DNA of 64,000 bases. It comes from Escherichia coli (GTDB lineage: Bacteria; Pseudomonadota; Gammaproteobacteria; Enterobacterales; Enterobacteriaceae). The stretch is from NCBI RefSeq assembly GCF_045037415.1, contig NZ_CP173439.1. The stretch is one strand, 5' to 3'. The translations under genes were made by a program, and so were the position numbers. The notes beneath the pieces are model-generated. The model ran no database searches. It saw nothing but the letters and a program-made list of their open reading frames with translations, and was not told the origin of the DNA. This document shows positions 1-7,747 of this stretch, in pieces. How positions within the stretch are numbered: position 1 is the stretch's first letter; each line of letters starts with the position of its first letter.

Positions 1-291
1 CAGCAGCGGTTTCGTTTTCAACTGACGTTCGGCAAGGCGCTGCTCCGCCGTCATTCCCCTTATCTCTGCCTCGATGGCGTACAGTTCGCCGATCCGTTTC
101 AGCGCTTCCTCCGTCAGGGTTGACGGGGTGCGAACGTGCACATCGTGGATTTTACGGCGGGCGTGAGCCCAACAGGCGGCTTCCGTTATCCGGTCATCCC
201 GGTACAGCTCGTTGAACCCGGCGTATGCATCCGCCTGCAGTACACCACTGAACCCCGCAAGATGGGTCTGCGGATGGATGCCTTTTCTGTG
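1..291 (-). pseudogene. IS66-family transposase (TnpC) internal fragment
   Basis: Minus-strand translation reads ...[46 protein letters not shown]...[14 protein letters not shown], with the CWAHARRK hallmark of IS66 TnpC; stop at 292-294 upstream, runs off the window at position 1. Confidence 0.6.
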
Positions 292-349
292 TCAACGCCA
301 CGATGTTTGACCGTTATTTGCCATTTTCATGCCCGCTAAGATACTTTCG

Positions 350-2319
<1,970 letters not shown>

Positions 2320-2366
2320 GTTGATGTCCTTTCTGGTGTGAGAACCTTAAGGAAACAACATGTTGG

Positions 2367-2666
2367 GTGGAGCGGACAATCCAAATGGTGAATTACCGTC
2401 TTATATCACTGGCGCTGACAAACAGGGATATTGCGACAATTCACAGCAATATCGTGCAGGAATACAACACCCTTAAAGGGTATAGCTGGAAATGGCTGGG
2501 TGGGGTGTCAGTGGCTTTTCTGGTTATGTTCTGTGTGCTCGGATGGGGAATGAAAACAATACTCGACAGGAACTACAACGCCACAGCGGCGGTGTATCAG
2601 AAAGTTGTGACACTGGAAGATAAACTGGTGGAGAAACCTGTCACGGGGAAGAGCCGGAAAAACTGA
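2367..2666 (+). CDS. hypothetical small membrane protein
   Basis: 99-aa ORF with one hydrophobic segment (GGVSVAFLVMFCVLGWG); start uncertain, may overlap the IS end. Confidence 0.3.
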   Translation: MERTIQMVNYRLISLALTNRDIATIHSNIVQEYNTLKGYSWKWLGGVSVAFLVMFCVLGWGMKTILDRNYNATAAVYQKVVTLEDKLVEKPVTGKSRKN

Positions 2667-2731
2667 CGCGCTTCGCTTGTCCAACGCCTCACGACCCGCG
2701 AAAGAATTTCGCGAACCGTTCACTGTTTTTT

Positions 2732-2941
2732 TCAATATGATTCTGTCTGCTTTGGTCGATAAAGCAGACGATAGTATTCCAGCCTTCGTATATATAACGG
2801 TACGTGCTCATCAGTAAGAGCTGGCGGTATTGTGTTATCAGGGGGAAGTTTTTTCAGATACTCACGAAATGCCTGGCTTGATGCCATAAAATCTACAGCT
2901 GCATCGATAATATGTGGGATATTTTCATCTAATTTTGTCAT
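2732..2941 (-). CDS. hypothetical protein
   Basis: 69-aa ORF, convergent with 2367..2666; no recognised motif. Confidence 0.25.
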
Positions 2942-3450
2942 GATGATTGATCTGATATTATCACGGTTCGTGAATTATAGTATGTCACTATTATTTATGC
3001 TTTAGTGAACCAGAAAAAATCCCCCGTTGGTATAGGGGGATATGTAAGGAGAAATAACTTCGCAGGTGTTCTTGTTTGTATTATAACGTGAAAAGAATGC
3101 ACGCAACTTAATTAATCTGCCGTACTTCCTTTCAGTTTTCAAGATAAGGTTTATAATAAAACATGGAATGGAAGCAAGCTTTAAGGTTTCAGCTCTAAAA
3201 TTTTTAATATCTATTAACTAGCTAGTTGTTGTCCTTGTGAGCATGTTGTATATAAAAGCTAGGATAATATCCTGACCGGAGTATTCATATTCCTTATCCC
3301 CTCTGTGTTCTCAGAGGTTTTTTTCTGTATTTAATGATATGAGCTGGAATGCGATTCCGGCCCCCCCCGTTTACATAATTCTCCCTGACATACGGCACCG
3401 GAATCGCATTGATTTTGCATTGCTAATGTCTAACTGTGCTGGTGAATGTT

Positions 3451-3488
3451 GGGGGCAGTTTGGATATCGAAAATTATTGTACGTTAAG
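3451..3488 (+). repeat. 38-bp Tn3-family-type terminal inverted repeat (copy A)
   Basis: Starts GGGG, ends ACGTTAAG as in Tn3-family IRs; related copies at 5787, 13586, 27905. Confidence 0.75.
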
Positions 3489-3554
3489 GTTGTTTTTTGA
3501 CCTTGTCGGGGTCCGCCTGCGGGCAGTAGAGATCATATAAGGTATTCAATAACG

Positions 3555-3830
3555 TCATGATGCGGTTATCCCCGATACGGTAATATACCATTTTACCTGC
3601 CCGTCGGGTTCGACCAGCTTCAGGCGACGCATGACACCCAACTGCTGAGACAGGGTCGGCTGAGTGATACCGACCGCCGCTTCCAGCTCGGTCACATTCG
3701 CTTCCCCCTGGCTTAACTGACACATCAACAATAGCCGGTCGCTGTTGGCCAGTCCCCGTAGGACATCTGCTGCCCCCAGGGCTGCATTTTTCATATCAGT
3801 CTGACGTTTTGTGTCTTCATTCATGGGCAT
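3555..3830 (-). CDS. ArsR/SmtB-family transcriptional regulator (BigR/YgaV-like)
   Basis: Winged-HTH region LLLMCQLSQGEANVTELEAAVGITQPTLSQQLGVMRRLKLV; divergent from the CoADR-rhodanese gene; start codon uncertain. Confidence 0.7.
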   Translation of the reverse strand: MPMNEDTKRQTDMKNAALGAADVLRGLANSDRLLLMCQLSQGEANVTELEAAVGITQPTLSQQLGVMRRLKLVEPDGQVKWYITVSGITAS

Positions 3831-3990
3831 TGCTGGTTTCTTATATTATGTATTTTTATATAATATTGTTCAGTATAATGATAGTGGCGTAATTTTGCCA
3901 CCGTGATCTTCAGGTCTGCAGCGTCCAGCTGGACCGGGTAACTAATTATATATGGCAGATATTTTGCCCCGAGTGAACAGAGAGGATGTA

Positions 3991-5649
3991 ATGAAAATAG
4001 TGATTGTTGGTGGTGTTGCCGGGGGAGCATCCGCTGCAGCCAGGGCTCGTCGGTTATCAGAGGATGTCAGTATTGTTGTGTTTGAGCGGGGAAGCGATGT
4101 CTCTTTCGCCAACTGTGGATTGCCTTATCATATAGGCGGAAAAATTCCGTTACGGCAGTCGCTGATTCTGAAAACCCCGGAGGATTTTAAATCCCGTTTT
4201 AACATAGACGTCCGTATCCGTCATGAAGTGATGTCAGTAGACCCGGTTAATAAGATGGTGACGGTTAAAAATCTGACCTCCGGGGAGGTCTATACCGAAG
4301 AATGGGATCGTCTGCTCCTCAGTACCGGTGCCGCTCCGGTTGTTCCCCCCTTGCCCGGACTACAGGAAGCGGGTGTCTTTACACTGCGAAATCTTACTGA
4401 CATGGATGCTATCCAGGCGTGGATTGAGCAACATAATATCGCTCACACCACGCTTGTCGGGGGGGGATTTATCGGGCTCGAAGTGATGGAGGCACTGAGC
4501 GAAAGGGGGATCAGTGTGACCCTGCTGGAGATGGGGGAACAGGTTATGGCTCCGGTTGATCCTGAAATGGCATCGGCCCTGCATCAGGAAATCAGGAGTC
4601 ATGGCGTGGATCTGCGTCTCAGAACGGCGCTCACCGAGGTACTGCGGACAGAGACGGGATTCCGCGTTGCACTGTCTGACGGTGGGTTTCTGCAGACCGA
4701 CATGGTTATTCTCGCCATCGGGGTAAAACCTGAGAGCAGCCTTGCCACAGGAGCCGGGCTCGCCGTGGGTAAACGGGGAGGCATAAGTGTCAATGCCTGT
4801 ATGCAGACAAGTATCCCTGACATCTATGCCGTGGGGGATGCAGTTGAAACACCTGACCTTGTCTTTCAGGAACCCGCTAATGTTCCTCTGGCAGGGCCAG
4901 CCAACCGCCAGGGACGCATTGCTGCTGATAATATGCTCGATCGTCACAGCCTTTACCATGGCAGTCAGGGGACATCCATTTGTAAGGTATTTTCGCTGAG
5001 TATTGGCAGTGTCGGGGCGAATGAAAAGCAGCTGAAAGCCCATGGTACCCGATACGAGAAGGTTTACGTCCATGCCGCTGATCATGCCAGTTACTACCCG
5101 GGGGCAACAATGATCAGTCTGAAACTGCTGTTCAGCCCCGATACCGGTAAAATTCTCGGGGCCCAGGCGTCAGGGAAAAAAGGGGTTGATAAACGCATCG
5201 ATGTCCTGGCTGTCGTACAGCGCGCGGGGCTTACCGTTAACGATCTCGAGCATCTGGAGCTGACCTATGCTCCGCCTTTCAACAGTGCAAGGGACGTCGT
5301 TAACCAGGCTGGAATGGTGGCGGCAAATGTTATCAAGGGTGATACGGTCATCTGTCATGTCCGCGATGTGTTACAACGGGAACCGGGCAGTTATTGTTTA
5401 CTTGATATTCGTTCTCCTGCAGAACTGAAACAATTTGGTGAATATCCTGACGCGCTATCCATCCCTCTTGATTCCCTGCGGGAGAATCTTGATAAGTTGC
5501 CTGAAGATAAAGAGATTATTATCGGGTGTCAGAGTGGTCTGCGGGGGCATGTGGCATACCGTATGCTTCAGTCTCACGGCTTCCGGACATATAATCTGAG
5601 TGGTGGTTTTATAACTTGGCAGGCGGTTACGGAATCAATGAGTCAATAA
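3991..5649 (+). CDS. CoA-disulfide reductase-like flavoprotein with C-terminal rhodanese domain
   Basis: N-terminal FAD motif IVGGVAGGASAA, redox Cys in SFANCGLPY, second Rossmann fold GGGFIGLE, C-terminal rhodanese with active-site Cys in IGCQSGLRG; AGAGG RBS before ATG 3991. Confidence 0.8.
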   Translation: MKIVIVGGVAGGASAAARARRLSEDVSIVVFERGSDVSFANCGLPYHIGGKIPLRQSLILKTPEDFKSRFNIDVRIRHEVMSVDPVNKMVTVKNLTSGEVYTEEWDRLLLSTGAAPVVPPLPGLQEAGVFTLRNLTDMDAIQAWIEQHNIAHTTLVGGGFIGLEVMEALSERGISVTLLEMGEQVMAPVDPEMASALHQEIRSHGVDLRLRTALTEVLRTETGFRVALSDGGFLQTDMVILAIGVKPESSLATGAGLAVGKRGGISVNACMQTSIPDIYAVGDAVETPDLVFQEPANVPLAGPANRQGRIAADNMLDRHSLYHGSQGTSICKVFSLSIGSVGANEKQLKAHGTRYEKVYVHAADHASYYPGATMISLKLLFSPDTGKILGAQASGKKGVDKRIDVLAVVQRAGLTVNDLEHLELTYAPPFNSARDVVNQAGMVAANVIKGDTVICHVRDVLQREPGSYCLLDIRSPAELKQFGEYPDALSIPLDSLRENLDKLPEDKEIIIGCQSGLRGHVAYRMLQSHGFRTYNLSGGFITWQAVTESMSQ

Positions 5650-5786
5650 GAGATGAGGTGCCATACACATGGCACCTCATCTTCCAGATTCATTGAAAAC
5701 GTATTATATGGAATAGAAATCTACAAAAATAATTAACACCCTGGATGGTACCCTATTGCGATAATGTGGACTGTTCAAAAAACAGG

Positions 5787-5824
5787 CTTACCGTACAATA
5801 ATTCTCTATATCCAAACTGACCCC
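5787..5824 (-). repeat. 38-bp Tn3-family-type inverted repeat (copy D, inverted partner of A)
   Basis: Reverse complement GGGGTCAGTTTGGATATAGAGAATTATTGTACGGTAAG. Confidence 0.75.
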
Positions 5825-6880
5825 AATGTTCCTGAATGTAAATCTCCGTACAAAGATATCGTTGAGTTTTATATAATTCATTGTTTTTATTGTGTTTTGT
5901 TTTTTTTGGTTGTGCTGGTTTGTAGTTATAAAAAACCCCTGGGAATCCAGGGGTAGGTAAGGAAAACAAATGATACTCAGTTAGTGTTGCACTTTAAACG
6001 GGTTGAAGTATAACTCGTATTAAATGAGATGTTGAAAATAAGTGAAAACCATTGCTGGTTGCAATAGGGCAGTATGCGTAAAAAATAAATTTGTGATGCT
6101 TTTCAAAAAAACAATTAATACATGAATATTACAGCTCATATATTACAGTTTATAAAAAACTGTGTTTTATCTATTACATAGAGAAAAATTCTTATCCTGA
6201 GCTGTGAACTTGGTTGTTTCGTTTGATATATATCTTTGTAAATGTGGTTTATTATGCGGGCATTTTTTATTGAGTATTGAATCAGAATAAGTGATGCAGC
6301 TAAATTTATTTGCGTAACTATTTCATTGTCAATATTCTGACTCAATCTGACACCTATCGTTTCTCTTGGATTCCCCACTTTTGTGGTTTTTTATCCGGAA
6401 CGGGATAGTGCCAGTTGTTTTTTATCAGCCTCAGGGTATTTTGGGGCGGTTGCGAACATTGACGCATTCCACAACTAAAAAAAATTTCTCACAGACTCTG
6501 ATTCTTGCCCCGACCCTTGGTCGGTTTTTTTTTGTCCTGGCGAAACGTGAAGCTCTGAAACAGGAAACCCCGTCAGAGCGCCACGCACCAGGGGAGAAAA
6601 CTTGTCGTTTTGAGCCGTTCGGTGTTCAGAACGCACGAAACCGATCGCACATCGCTTTCGTGCATAGTTATGCAACGCCCTGAAAACGATTCTGACGCGT
6701 TTTTCTGGTTTGGCCTGGTGTTTTCTTGTCTTTTTGCGTTTTTTGCGCCAGAAAGCGATTGAGGGCGTTTTACATGGTACGTACAACGGGAGTTATGGTA
6801 AATGGATCGGGTTTTCGGGAAGGTTCGACAGGATTTGCCGTTGGGTGTAGTGTAAGCGACTGAAAAACAAACGCCCCTGA

Positions 6881-7579
6881 AATCATGTCCAGATCCGGCA
6901 GAACCAGCCTCATGCGCAGTTCTGGCTGGTTTTTGACGTTGATCGCGAGGGGGCAGCGATTGACTGGAGCGACCGGAACGCTCCCGCGCCGAACATCACC
7001 GTAAAAAATCCTGTGAACGGTCATGCTCACCTGCTCTACGCGCTCAATATCGCCGTGAGAACCGCGCCGGACAGCTCGGTTAAGGCGCTGAAATACGCCG
7101 CTGCGATTGAACGTTCGCTGTGTGAGAAACTTTGTGCTGATGTGAACTACAGCGGACTGATTTGTAAAAATCCGTTCCACCTGGAATGGCAGGTGATGGA
7201 GTGGCGAGAGGAAGCCTATACCCTCGATGAACTGGCTGATTATCTCGATTTGAGCGCCTCAGCGCGCCGTAGCATCGATAAACATTACGGGATGGGGCGA
7301 AACTGCCACCTGTTCGAAATGACGCGCAAATGGGCTTACAGGGCGATTCGTCAGGGCTGGCCCGAATTCTCACAGTGGCTTGATGCCGTGATTCAGCGTG
7401 TCGAAATGTACAACGCATCGCTTTCCGTTCCGCTTTCACCGCCTGAATGTCGGGCTATTGGCAAGAGCATTGCGAAATACACGCACAGGAACTTCACGCC
7501 GGAAACTTTCGCACAGTATGTGGCTGATACGCACACATTAACGTACGTTTTCGTTCCATTGGCCCTCACCCCCCGATAA
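6881..7579 (+). pseudogene. ColE2-type (primase-like) Rep initiator homolog with no recognisable N-terminus
   Basis: Frame is open from 6881 with no ATG until a GTG at 7013; motifs FWLVFDVD, KNPVNGHAHLLYAL, NPFH, GMGRNCHLF recalled as Rep/primase-like; preceded by about 1 kb of AT-rich non-coding DNA. Confidence 0.4.
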
Positions 7580-7747
7580 CGACCCAGGTAGCGCGCCGTA
7601 TTCCCCCCGCCGGCCGTTTTCTTCGACATGTACATCAGGCGCGGAACTCATCGGGGCGCGGGAATGAAATCCCATTCAGACTCCGGATAGATTCAAGCAA
7701 GCCCACTTATCGTCAAAATCGGTGTTGCAAAAACGGGAGTGACCATA

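Follow-up and report, generated by a model that had tools for sequence, protein, structure and literature searches.

Positions 2367-3450 of the DNA analyzed here hold two convergent open reading frames (ORFs) of 99 and 69 amino acids (aa), followed by AT-rich DNA. They belong to a stretch of 64,000 nucleotides (nt) from Escherichia coli (assembly GCF_045037415.1, contig NZ_CP173439.1), and we will refer to that whole stretch as "the window". A preliminary description, made from the sequence alone, had reported the two ORFs on opposite strands and the AT-rich DNA after them, and both observations hold: the stop codons are separated by 65 bp, and the GC content is 33-42% over ~2900-3450, against ~48-59% in the flanking genes. 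Judged by its similarity to sequenced plasmids, the studied stretch is very probably the truncated left end of a fossil small plasmid of the pMG828-4 type, embedded in a large E. coli plasmid. The features concerned are the following:

290-2420, minus strand: IS21-like insertion sequence (IS) with istB intact and istA broken, recognized by its terminal repeats and its IstB and rve domains
2367-2666, plus strand: chimeric 99-aa ORF, a pseudogene in which IS21 codons are fused in frame to a fragment of a 177-aa gene
2421-2666, plus strand: codons 97-177 and the stop of the 177-aa protein, with 100% identity to residues 97-177 of the full-length protein
2421-7536: captured remnant of pMG828-4 type (Col156, ColE2-type replicon, mobilizable), assigned by similarity to sequenced plasmids
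2732-2941, minus strand: intact yibT-like gene of 69 aa with an ATG start, a paralogue of chromosomal yibT
2942-3450: AT-rich non-coding backbone, conserved at 69-82% across plasmid lineages
3012-3038 (hairpin 3021-3038), minus strand: terminator-like hairpin CCCCCTATACCAACGGGGG and then a T run, upstream of the yibT-like gene; putative function
3176-3196: conserved non-coding block AGCTTTAAGGTTTCAGCTC, near-invariant in four lineages
3228-3256, plus strand: promoter-like site TTGTTG / TTGTCC ... TATAAA, ~45 nt upstream of the next terminator; a candidate read from the sequence
3300-3325, plus strand: predicted intrinsic terminator CCTCTG-TGTTCT-CAGAGG plus T7 (hairpin 3300-3317), preceded by ATTCCTTA(C/T)CCCC
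3348-3360 and 3398-3410: 13-bp perfect inverted repeat AATGCGATTCCGG / CCGGAATCGCATT with a 37-nt spacer, the sequence of which is also conserved

The captured remnant is 5.1 kb long, and the studied stretch makes up its left fifth. Across window positions 2421-6561 (~4.1 kb), which include the yibT-like gene, the AT-rich backbone and an oxidoreductase cassette, the identity with pMG828-4 (NC_008489 / DQ995354; 7462 bp) is 99.5%, and more matching blocks extend to 7536. Over 2421-3416 the window is also 90.6% identical to the 5.16-kb Col156 plasmids (5167-bp type, e.g., pJJ1886_2), which are a very common type. Plasmid pMG828-4 has been distinguished by an inserted "NADH oxidase" gene (PMC3364232), and this insert is the oxidoreductase cassette of the window. 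The Col156 type is associated with ColE2-like initiators, and the ColE2-type origin is positioned 3' of rep (PMC6856555). Intact relatives carry a ColE2-type Rep (PF03090 plus PriCT_1), a MobA/MobL relaxase, a MobC-like gene and an RSF1010-like origin of transfer (oriT), the latter lying upstream of mobA in this family (GTTTCTC..GAGAAAC, AGTGCGCTCC, ~1640-1680 in locus L002). The same arrangement, with the same IS21 junction, is found in 12 large E. coli plasmids, pVR50B among them. On these sequence matches, the block at 2421-7536 is incorporated small-plasmid DNA and is not native to the large plasmid.

This plasmid no longer stands as a replicon of its own. The small-plasmid homology ends at 7536, within rep, and ~183 bp are missing between 6883 and 6893 in comparison with pMG828-4 and pVR50B, so that the 5' end of the ColE2-type rep is lost; with rep cut at both ends the replicon is dead, and the block is a remnant rather than an autonomous replicon. 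The relaxase gene, the oriT with its nick site and the mobC gene that together make up a MOBQ module are missing from the window as well, where the IS21-like element stands upstream of codon 97 of the 177-aa gene. The cer-like XerC/XerD core of the captured plasmid is found at 6776-6803 (GGTACGTACAA-CGGGAG-TTATGGTAAAT). The block is an already sequenced and known plasmid backbone, present here as a dead remnant.

At the left junction, small-plasmid homology begins exactly at 2421, which corresponds to pMG828-4 position 4142 and to the first base of codon 97 in the 177-aa gene. The IS21-like element on the other side is 2131 bp long and has the terminal inverted repeats TGTCAACGCCA... / ...TGGCGCTGACA; its istA is divided into two ORFs (299 aa and 85 aa), and the corresponding element in pVR50B also bears an IS21-like annotation. 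The 4 bp flanking the element differ (286-289 vs 2421-2424), and this lack of a target-site duplication is consistent with IS-mediated deletion or recombination rather than with simple insertion. The 99-aa ORF, with a GTG start at the first base of 2367-2666 (plus strand) and a hydrophobic stretch WKWLGGVSVAFLVMFCVLGWGM, straddles this junction. Its start codon and first 18 codons are given by the terminal 54 bp of the element (2367-2420); since 54 nt are 18 codons, the ORF consists of IS codons joined in frame to codons 97-177. It is a chance fusion and truncation artefact, not a functional gene. What had been described as a 99-aa predicted membrane protein is therefore an IS21 chimera with a fragment of a 177-aa mobilization-module protein. 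The stretch does stand apart as a block of its own, bounded by the IS21-family element and the cassette repeat, as had been proposed, but the 99-aa ORF is not wholly contained in it, since it starts inside the element, which ends at 2420.

The native 177-aa gene is found directly downstream of mobA on 5.2-kb, 7.5-kb and 3.1-kb plasmids and on other small replicons, and 496 of the 516 plasmids bearing it are typed as mobilizable. The 3.1-kb plasmids carry mobA and the 177-aa gene, and have neither an annotated rep gene nor yibT. A structure model of the protein shows two long helices, including a single transmembrane segment, at low confidence (pLDDT, the predicted local distance difference test, of 61). 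From this recurrent position next to the relaxase gene we infer that the 177-aa product is an accessory protein of the MOBQ module. Profile searches of both ORFs gave a divided outcome: the 69-aa protein falls in the YibT family, and the 177-aa parent of the 99-aa ORF has no Pfam or NCBIfam family match. Both ORFs are conserved in related plasmids, as the tail of the 177-aa gene and as a yibT-like gene, respectively. The preliminary statement that no function can be assigned stands insofar as both lack a characterized function, but the 69-aa ORF can be assigned to a family; the wording "uncharacterised ORF pair" is misleading, as the 177-aa gene and YibT are distributed independently and do not form a functional pair.

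The 69-aa protein shows 71-72% identity to E. coli YibT over its full length and with no internal gaps; the invariant columns are common to both, the conserved motifs of the YibT family are present at the N-terminus and, as RLEYYRxLYRPKQ, at the C-terminus, and its homologues are named "protein YibT" in the sources. At the DNA level, homology to chromosomal yibT is limited to the coding sequence (window 2747-2947, 77%). Compared with the yibT of strain CFT073, the ratio of nonsynonymous to synonymous substitution rates (dN/dS) is 0.16-0.18 (about 0.17) at a dS of about 1.1-1.2, values indicating that the gene evolved as a real protein. By this measure, the 69-aa ORF is an intact YibT-family backbone gene, selectively maintained. 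YibT, a stress-regulated protein of enterobacteria, has been described as a sigma-S-dependent small protein of 69 aa in E. coli K-12 and Salmonella (PMC5437024), a yibT knockout alters butanol tolerance and membrane fatty acids (PMC4888631), and plasmid copies have previously been labelled YibT (PMC10265513). Solitary YibT-like genes are also known from the chromosome and from IncX1 and other plasmids.

The identity of the AT-rich DNA with other plasmids is 82% in the 5.16-kb lineage, 74% in another lineage comparison, and ~69% in L004, whose members are embedded in large plasmids of Escherichia. Scanning metagenomes yielded one more variant (L040), and a genome-collection scan returned just two loci, both of known types. 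Beyond the cassette the backbone stays AT-rich (27-39% GC at 5832-6400). Comparison of the short ORFs across lineages gave no ORF conserved between them in the AT-rich DNA. The hydrophobic 55-aa ORF of L002 (3646-3813), considered as a hidden small gene, is interrupted in the window, and the tiny ORFs (4-9 aa) behind Shine-Dalgarno (SD)-like motifs were likewise discarded, as they differ between lineages. No cer site lies in 2367-3450, where no XerC/XerD core (11-bp arms, 6-8-bp spacer) was found, the core of the plasmid being that at 6776. A replication origin was also rejected, with no DnaA box within one mismatch in 2300-7600 and no iterons or tandem repeats, and so was an oriT: unlike the family oriT upstream of mobA, the 13-bp hairpin has no AGTGCGC-type nick sequence. 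Scanning 2300-3500 against Rfam 15 at E <= 1 returned no match, and the corresponding parts of L001 and L002 matched no family either. Sequence comparison thus presents the AT-rich DNA as the conserved non-coding backbone of a known small-plasmid family, and not as an anonymous spacer of the large plasmid.

Conservation in this backbone is highest in a 129-bp core (3289-3416) made up of ATTCCTTA(C/T)CCCC, the terminator on the plus strand and the 13-bp-stem hairpin, loop included; the core still shows 75-78% identity in loci with replaced flanks (L006, L082). In L006 the core lies beside a microcin B17 operon, a context set aside as uninformative because it is a recombination junction. The predicted terminator at 3300-3325 has the sequence features of an intrinsic terminator (6-bp GC-rich stem, 6-nt loop, T7 tract), ranks first in conservation among the non-coding blocks of every lineage, even in the two that keep only the 129-bp core, and has an RNA fold with z = -2.3 to -3.4. 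On the minus strand, the hairpin at 3012-3038 has the same form in the 5167-bp lineage; a 5-nt deletion destroys its stem in L004, where an alternative short stem is possible. Three terminator-like hairpins were found against 1.4 +/- 1.2 expected, a count that is not significant alone. Three terminator-like hairpins of the AT-rich backbone, at 3012-3046 (minus), 3289-3325 (plus) and 5929-5962 (minus), each have TCCTTA(C/T) 0-5 nt before them, and the opposite strand reads as hairpin, TAAGGA SD-like motif and tiny non-conserved ORF; in L004 the TCCTTA motif is gone from two of the three modules. Within the promoter-like site, the window, L002, L040 and L004 all keep the ATATAAA element, which is degenerate in L082; a consensus promoter scan of the window did not call the site at 3228-3256.

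The 13-bp-stem inverted repeat had already been noticed and is real, although it lies at 3348-3410 and not at 3346-3409, a difference of 1-2 bases. About 0.06 perfect 13-bp inverted repeats would be expected by chance in 64 kb with a spacing of <=60 nt (64000 x 61 / 4^13), and this is the sole long-spacer example of its kind in the window. The hairpin is more stable than shuffled sequence both as DNA (z = -3.1 and -4.1) and as RNA (z = -2.5 and -3.0). Among seven distinct variants, 92% of the stem positions pair, with one two-sided change from A-T to G-C. Three plus-strand A.C mismatches were considered as a sign of a minus-strand hairpin RNA; the L040 variant shows the opposite mismatch type, so the strand of a putative hairpin RNA cannot be inferred. 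By the left arm, a C8 run in the loop (3361-3368) varies as C7, C8 or C9 among near-identical pMG828-4-type sequences, and the other lineages have no homopolymer at the equivalent position; this variation may reflect replication slippage or sequencing error. The inverted repeat is conserved and, from its sequence, may work at the level of RNA or of single-stranded DNA, or serve to bind a protein.

As to the role of these elements, we tentatively read the terminator and hairpin core as a transcription-stop or insulation module, without claiming that this is the probable answer. The 129-bp core, with its predicted terminator (3300-3325) followed by the 13-bp-stem hairpin (3348-3410) and a U-rich tract, would block plus-strand transcription coming from the mob/yibT side or from local AT-rich promoters, and in the intact plasmid the protected targets would be the downstream cer site and the antisense-controlled rep region. 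Several observations weigh against such a role. A loop of 37 nt is unusual for a terminator; its conservation, equal to that of the stem, speaks for a sequence-specific role, which insulation leaves unexplained. The covariation is weak, amounting to a single compensated pair, which probably arose once, and equally good scores were reached by 45 of 500 shuffles; one-sided stem changes are also tolerated in several lineages. In the window itself, the rep remnant has neither end, so the proposed protected targets are broken and any role would be vestigial. A somewhat doubtful alternative is that one or two small regulatory RNAs are transcribed from the AT-rich region: one of ~60 nt on the plus strand, running from the promoter-like site at 3228-3256 to the terminator at 3325, and a divergent one of ~55 nt on the minus strand, from TTGCGT-N15-TATAAT (~3105-3076) to the terminator at 3012-3038. 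Their single-stranded UCCUUA(C/U), complementary to the Shine-Dalgarno sequence, could block the translation of a target mRNA. Promoter-like elements and terminators do stand in the correct order on both strands, TCCTTA(C/T) precedes all three backbone terminator hairpins, a pattern that chance alone would hardly produce, both the ATATAAA element and the 3' motif ATTCCTTACCCCC show conservation, and the plus-strand candidate folds better than shuffles, with the z-scores given above. However, no Rfam family matches even at a permissive E-value, and neither promoter is called by the consensus scan; only a degenerate form of the plus-strand promoter is found in L082, and none in L006. The plus-strand candidate has no conserved structure in its 5' half, which is variable both in sequence and in length (~25-44 nt), and the loss of TCCTTA from two modules in L004 also speaks against regulatory RNAs. 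Pairing to the yibT-like ribosome-binding site would involve only 6 bp, at a site which is absent from the window copy.

It could equally be asked whether the AT-rich DNA has any function, being perhaps the residue of a decaying accessory operon (e.g., of a bacteriocin), with the terminator and hairpin as its eroding 3' end; we regard this as rather unlikely. In ColE9-J, the equivalent interval upstream of cer is filled by the colicin operon (PMC6856555), the lineages share no conserved ORF, and between two of these the non-coding DNA is ~82% identical, compared with 97% for the adjacent yibT coding sequence (6 differences in 207 nt) and >99% for the 177-aa protein. A sequence loosely like a colicin LexA box, TTGTATATAAAAGCTAG, is present as well, but it has neither of the essential CTG and CAG triplets, and outside rep/cer no DNA similarity to ColE9-J can be detected; a decayed colicin promoter with its LexA box, suggested by the resemblance to the ColE9 promoter, was rejected on these two grounds. 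Moreover, the retention of the 129-bp core at 75-78% where the flanks have been replaced suggests constraint, which counts against simple decay. That the 13-bp-stem hairpin is a single-strand initiation (ssi), or priming, signal on the plasmid DNA, for lagging-strand synthesis or for complementary-strand synthesis after mobilization, appears improbable. Such a signal would fit a hairpin whose single-stranded DNA form is stable for either strand (z = -3.1 and -4.1) and which is conserved, loop included, within a mobilizable plasmid family, and ColE2-type plasmids reportedly carry ssi signals; nevertheless, in the intact plasmid the hairpin is ~2.9 kb from the ColE2-type origin and ~2.2 kb from oriT, it has no DnaA box, and it shows no similarity to oriT. 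Finally, there is hardly any chance that the two convergent ORFs form a functional two-gene module, such as a membrane toxin and a small partner. Both genes are adjacent in all Col156-type relatives, and the 99-aa product would keep the transmembrane segment; but the 99-aa ORF exists solely as an IS21 fusion of a gene that natively encodes 177 aa, the 177-aa gene accompanies mobA on plasmids lacking yibT, and homologues of YibT stand alone both on the chromosome and on other plasmids. Convergent genes are not co-transcribed, and the independent distributions effectively refute such a module. Insulation remains the reading that we put forward, in the provisional terms used above.

Suggestive, if not established, similarities place YibT as a possible distant relative of the theta subunit of DNA polymerase III (Pol III), HolE, and of its phage P1 homologue HOT. 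The 69-aa protein of the window has by itself no match to the corresponding family, PF06440, and E. coli YibT (13.3 bits) and the best member of the YibT family (26.2 bits) stay below its gathering threshold of 34.6 bits. The match of the YibT family is collinear (residues 15-60 to profile positions 16-61, 13-26 bits), and that to phage P1 HOT (1se7) has E = 0.026. A YibT profile search of 1.8 billion proteins retrieved P0235, P0249 and P0252 at library-wide E-values of 2e-7 to 8e-5, and these three exceed the PF06440 gathering threshold (36-44 bits). A comparison with HolE by hhalign gave a probability of 1.8%, and fold searches from a low-confidence YibT-like model (pLDDT 67) were uninformative. 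The YibT relatives P0235, P0244, P0252 and P0255 match Pol III theta, some of them above the gathering threshold, and also GlgS (PF08971), below threshold. There are hints in these sequence matches that YibT, theta/HOT and GlgS could be one superfamily of small three-helix proteins. It would be bolder still, and in our opinion improbable, to suppose that the 129-bp core, perhaps together with divergent UCCUUAC mini-transcription units, is an undescribed RNA or cis element of Col156 plasmids, and that plasmid YibT binds the Pol III proofreading subunit or another host factor to the benefit of the plasmid.

On its right side, the studied stretch runs into a transposon-like cassette, with these features:

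3445-3500: boundary, where the direct repeat AATGTT leads into the left inverted repeat of the Tn3-family-type cassette that interrupts the AT-rich backbone
3451-5824: non-autonomous Tn3-family-type cassette of 2.37 kb, with AATGTT flanks at 3445-3450 and 5825-5830
3555-3830, minus strand: ArsR/SmtB regulator in the cassette (domain match)
3952-5649, plus strand: 565-aa pyridine-nucleotide disulfide oxidoreductase with a C-terminal rhodanese domain, in the cassette (domain match)

The inverted-repeat pair of the cassette spans 3444-3500 / 5775-5831, and its terminal inverted repeats are ~40 bp long (GGGG.CAGTTTGGATAT...ACG.TAAG). The 5.16-kb relatives have no cassette (empty site) and backbone homology resumes at 5869, so that the cassette was inserted into the AT-rich backbone. 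Inside the oxidoreductase gene, a sub-threshold Rfam match to the Vibrio antisense RNA AS7 (4010-4178, minus strand; 52.7 bits vs a gathering score of 90) is most likely explained by conservation of the coding sequence and not by an RNA gene. Elsewhere among ColE2-type plasmids, the record of an E. coli Nissle plasmid (NZ_CP022687.1, locus L103) has the Kiwa anti-phage genes kwaA and kwaB annotated beside rep, which shows that these plasmids have a variable accessory slot. The deletion study of pMUT1 and pMUT2 in E. coli Nissle (PMC10859263) was considered as a dissection of the same backbone and set aside, as the accessory genes of pMUT2 differ. The "Hyp1/Hyp2 toxin-antitoxin" of that study (PMC10859263) could not be tied to the mobilization module either, Nissle lying outside the best 60 matches to a 3.1-kb mob-module plasmid.

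The finding is largely ordinary and leaves current understanding unchallenged. Its main value is one of correct annotation: what appears in several large E. coli plasmids as a "99-aa membrane protein" is an artefact of IS21 fusion. The region is also the trace of a capture event, in which a large plasmid took up a small one of Col156 type. Besides, ~300 sequenced plasmids keep the conserved non-coding terminator and hairpin core, and the same plasmids carry a yibT copy. Cryptic plasmids of this kind are common in clinical E. coli, e.g., in sequence type 131 (ST131); if the core or plasmid YibT aids plasmid maintenance, this would be a small addition to the biology of cryptic plasmids.

Among known systems, pIGJC156 is close, together with pMG828-4 and the 5.16-kb Col156 plasmids: all are small E. 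coli plasmids with a ColE2 replicon and MOBQ mobilization. Compared with the intact Col156 plasmids, the remnant in the window is embedded and non-autonomous, and has lost mobC, oriT and mobA, together with codons 1-96 of the 177-aa gene. In R1162, relaxase transport is aided by MobB, a small protein associated with the membrane. The 177-aa product resembles such accessory mobilization proteins of MOBQ plasmids (e.g., MobB of RSF1010/R1162): its gene lies just after a MobA/MobL relaxase gene and moves with it between replicons, and the protein is predicted to be small, helical and membrane-anchored. It has no sequence similarity to any described family, however, and the window copy is a 3' fragment. 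The 13-bp-stem hairpin differs from a canonical intrinsic terminator in its conserved 37-nt loop and in having a U-rich tail instead of a U-run. As for yibT, the plasmid copy has an upstream region unrelated to that of the chromosomal gene, and the window copy does not have the TAAGGA ribosome-binding site of the 5.16-kb lineage. Like HolE and HOT, the YibT family consists of small three-helix proteins, and like HOT, the possible homologue in the window resides on a mobile replicon.

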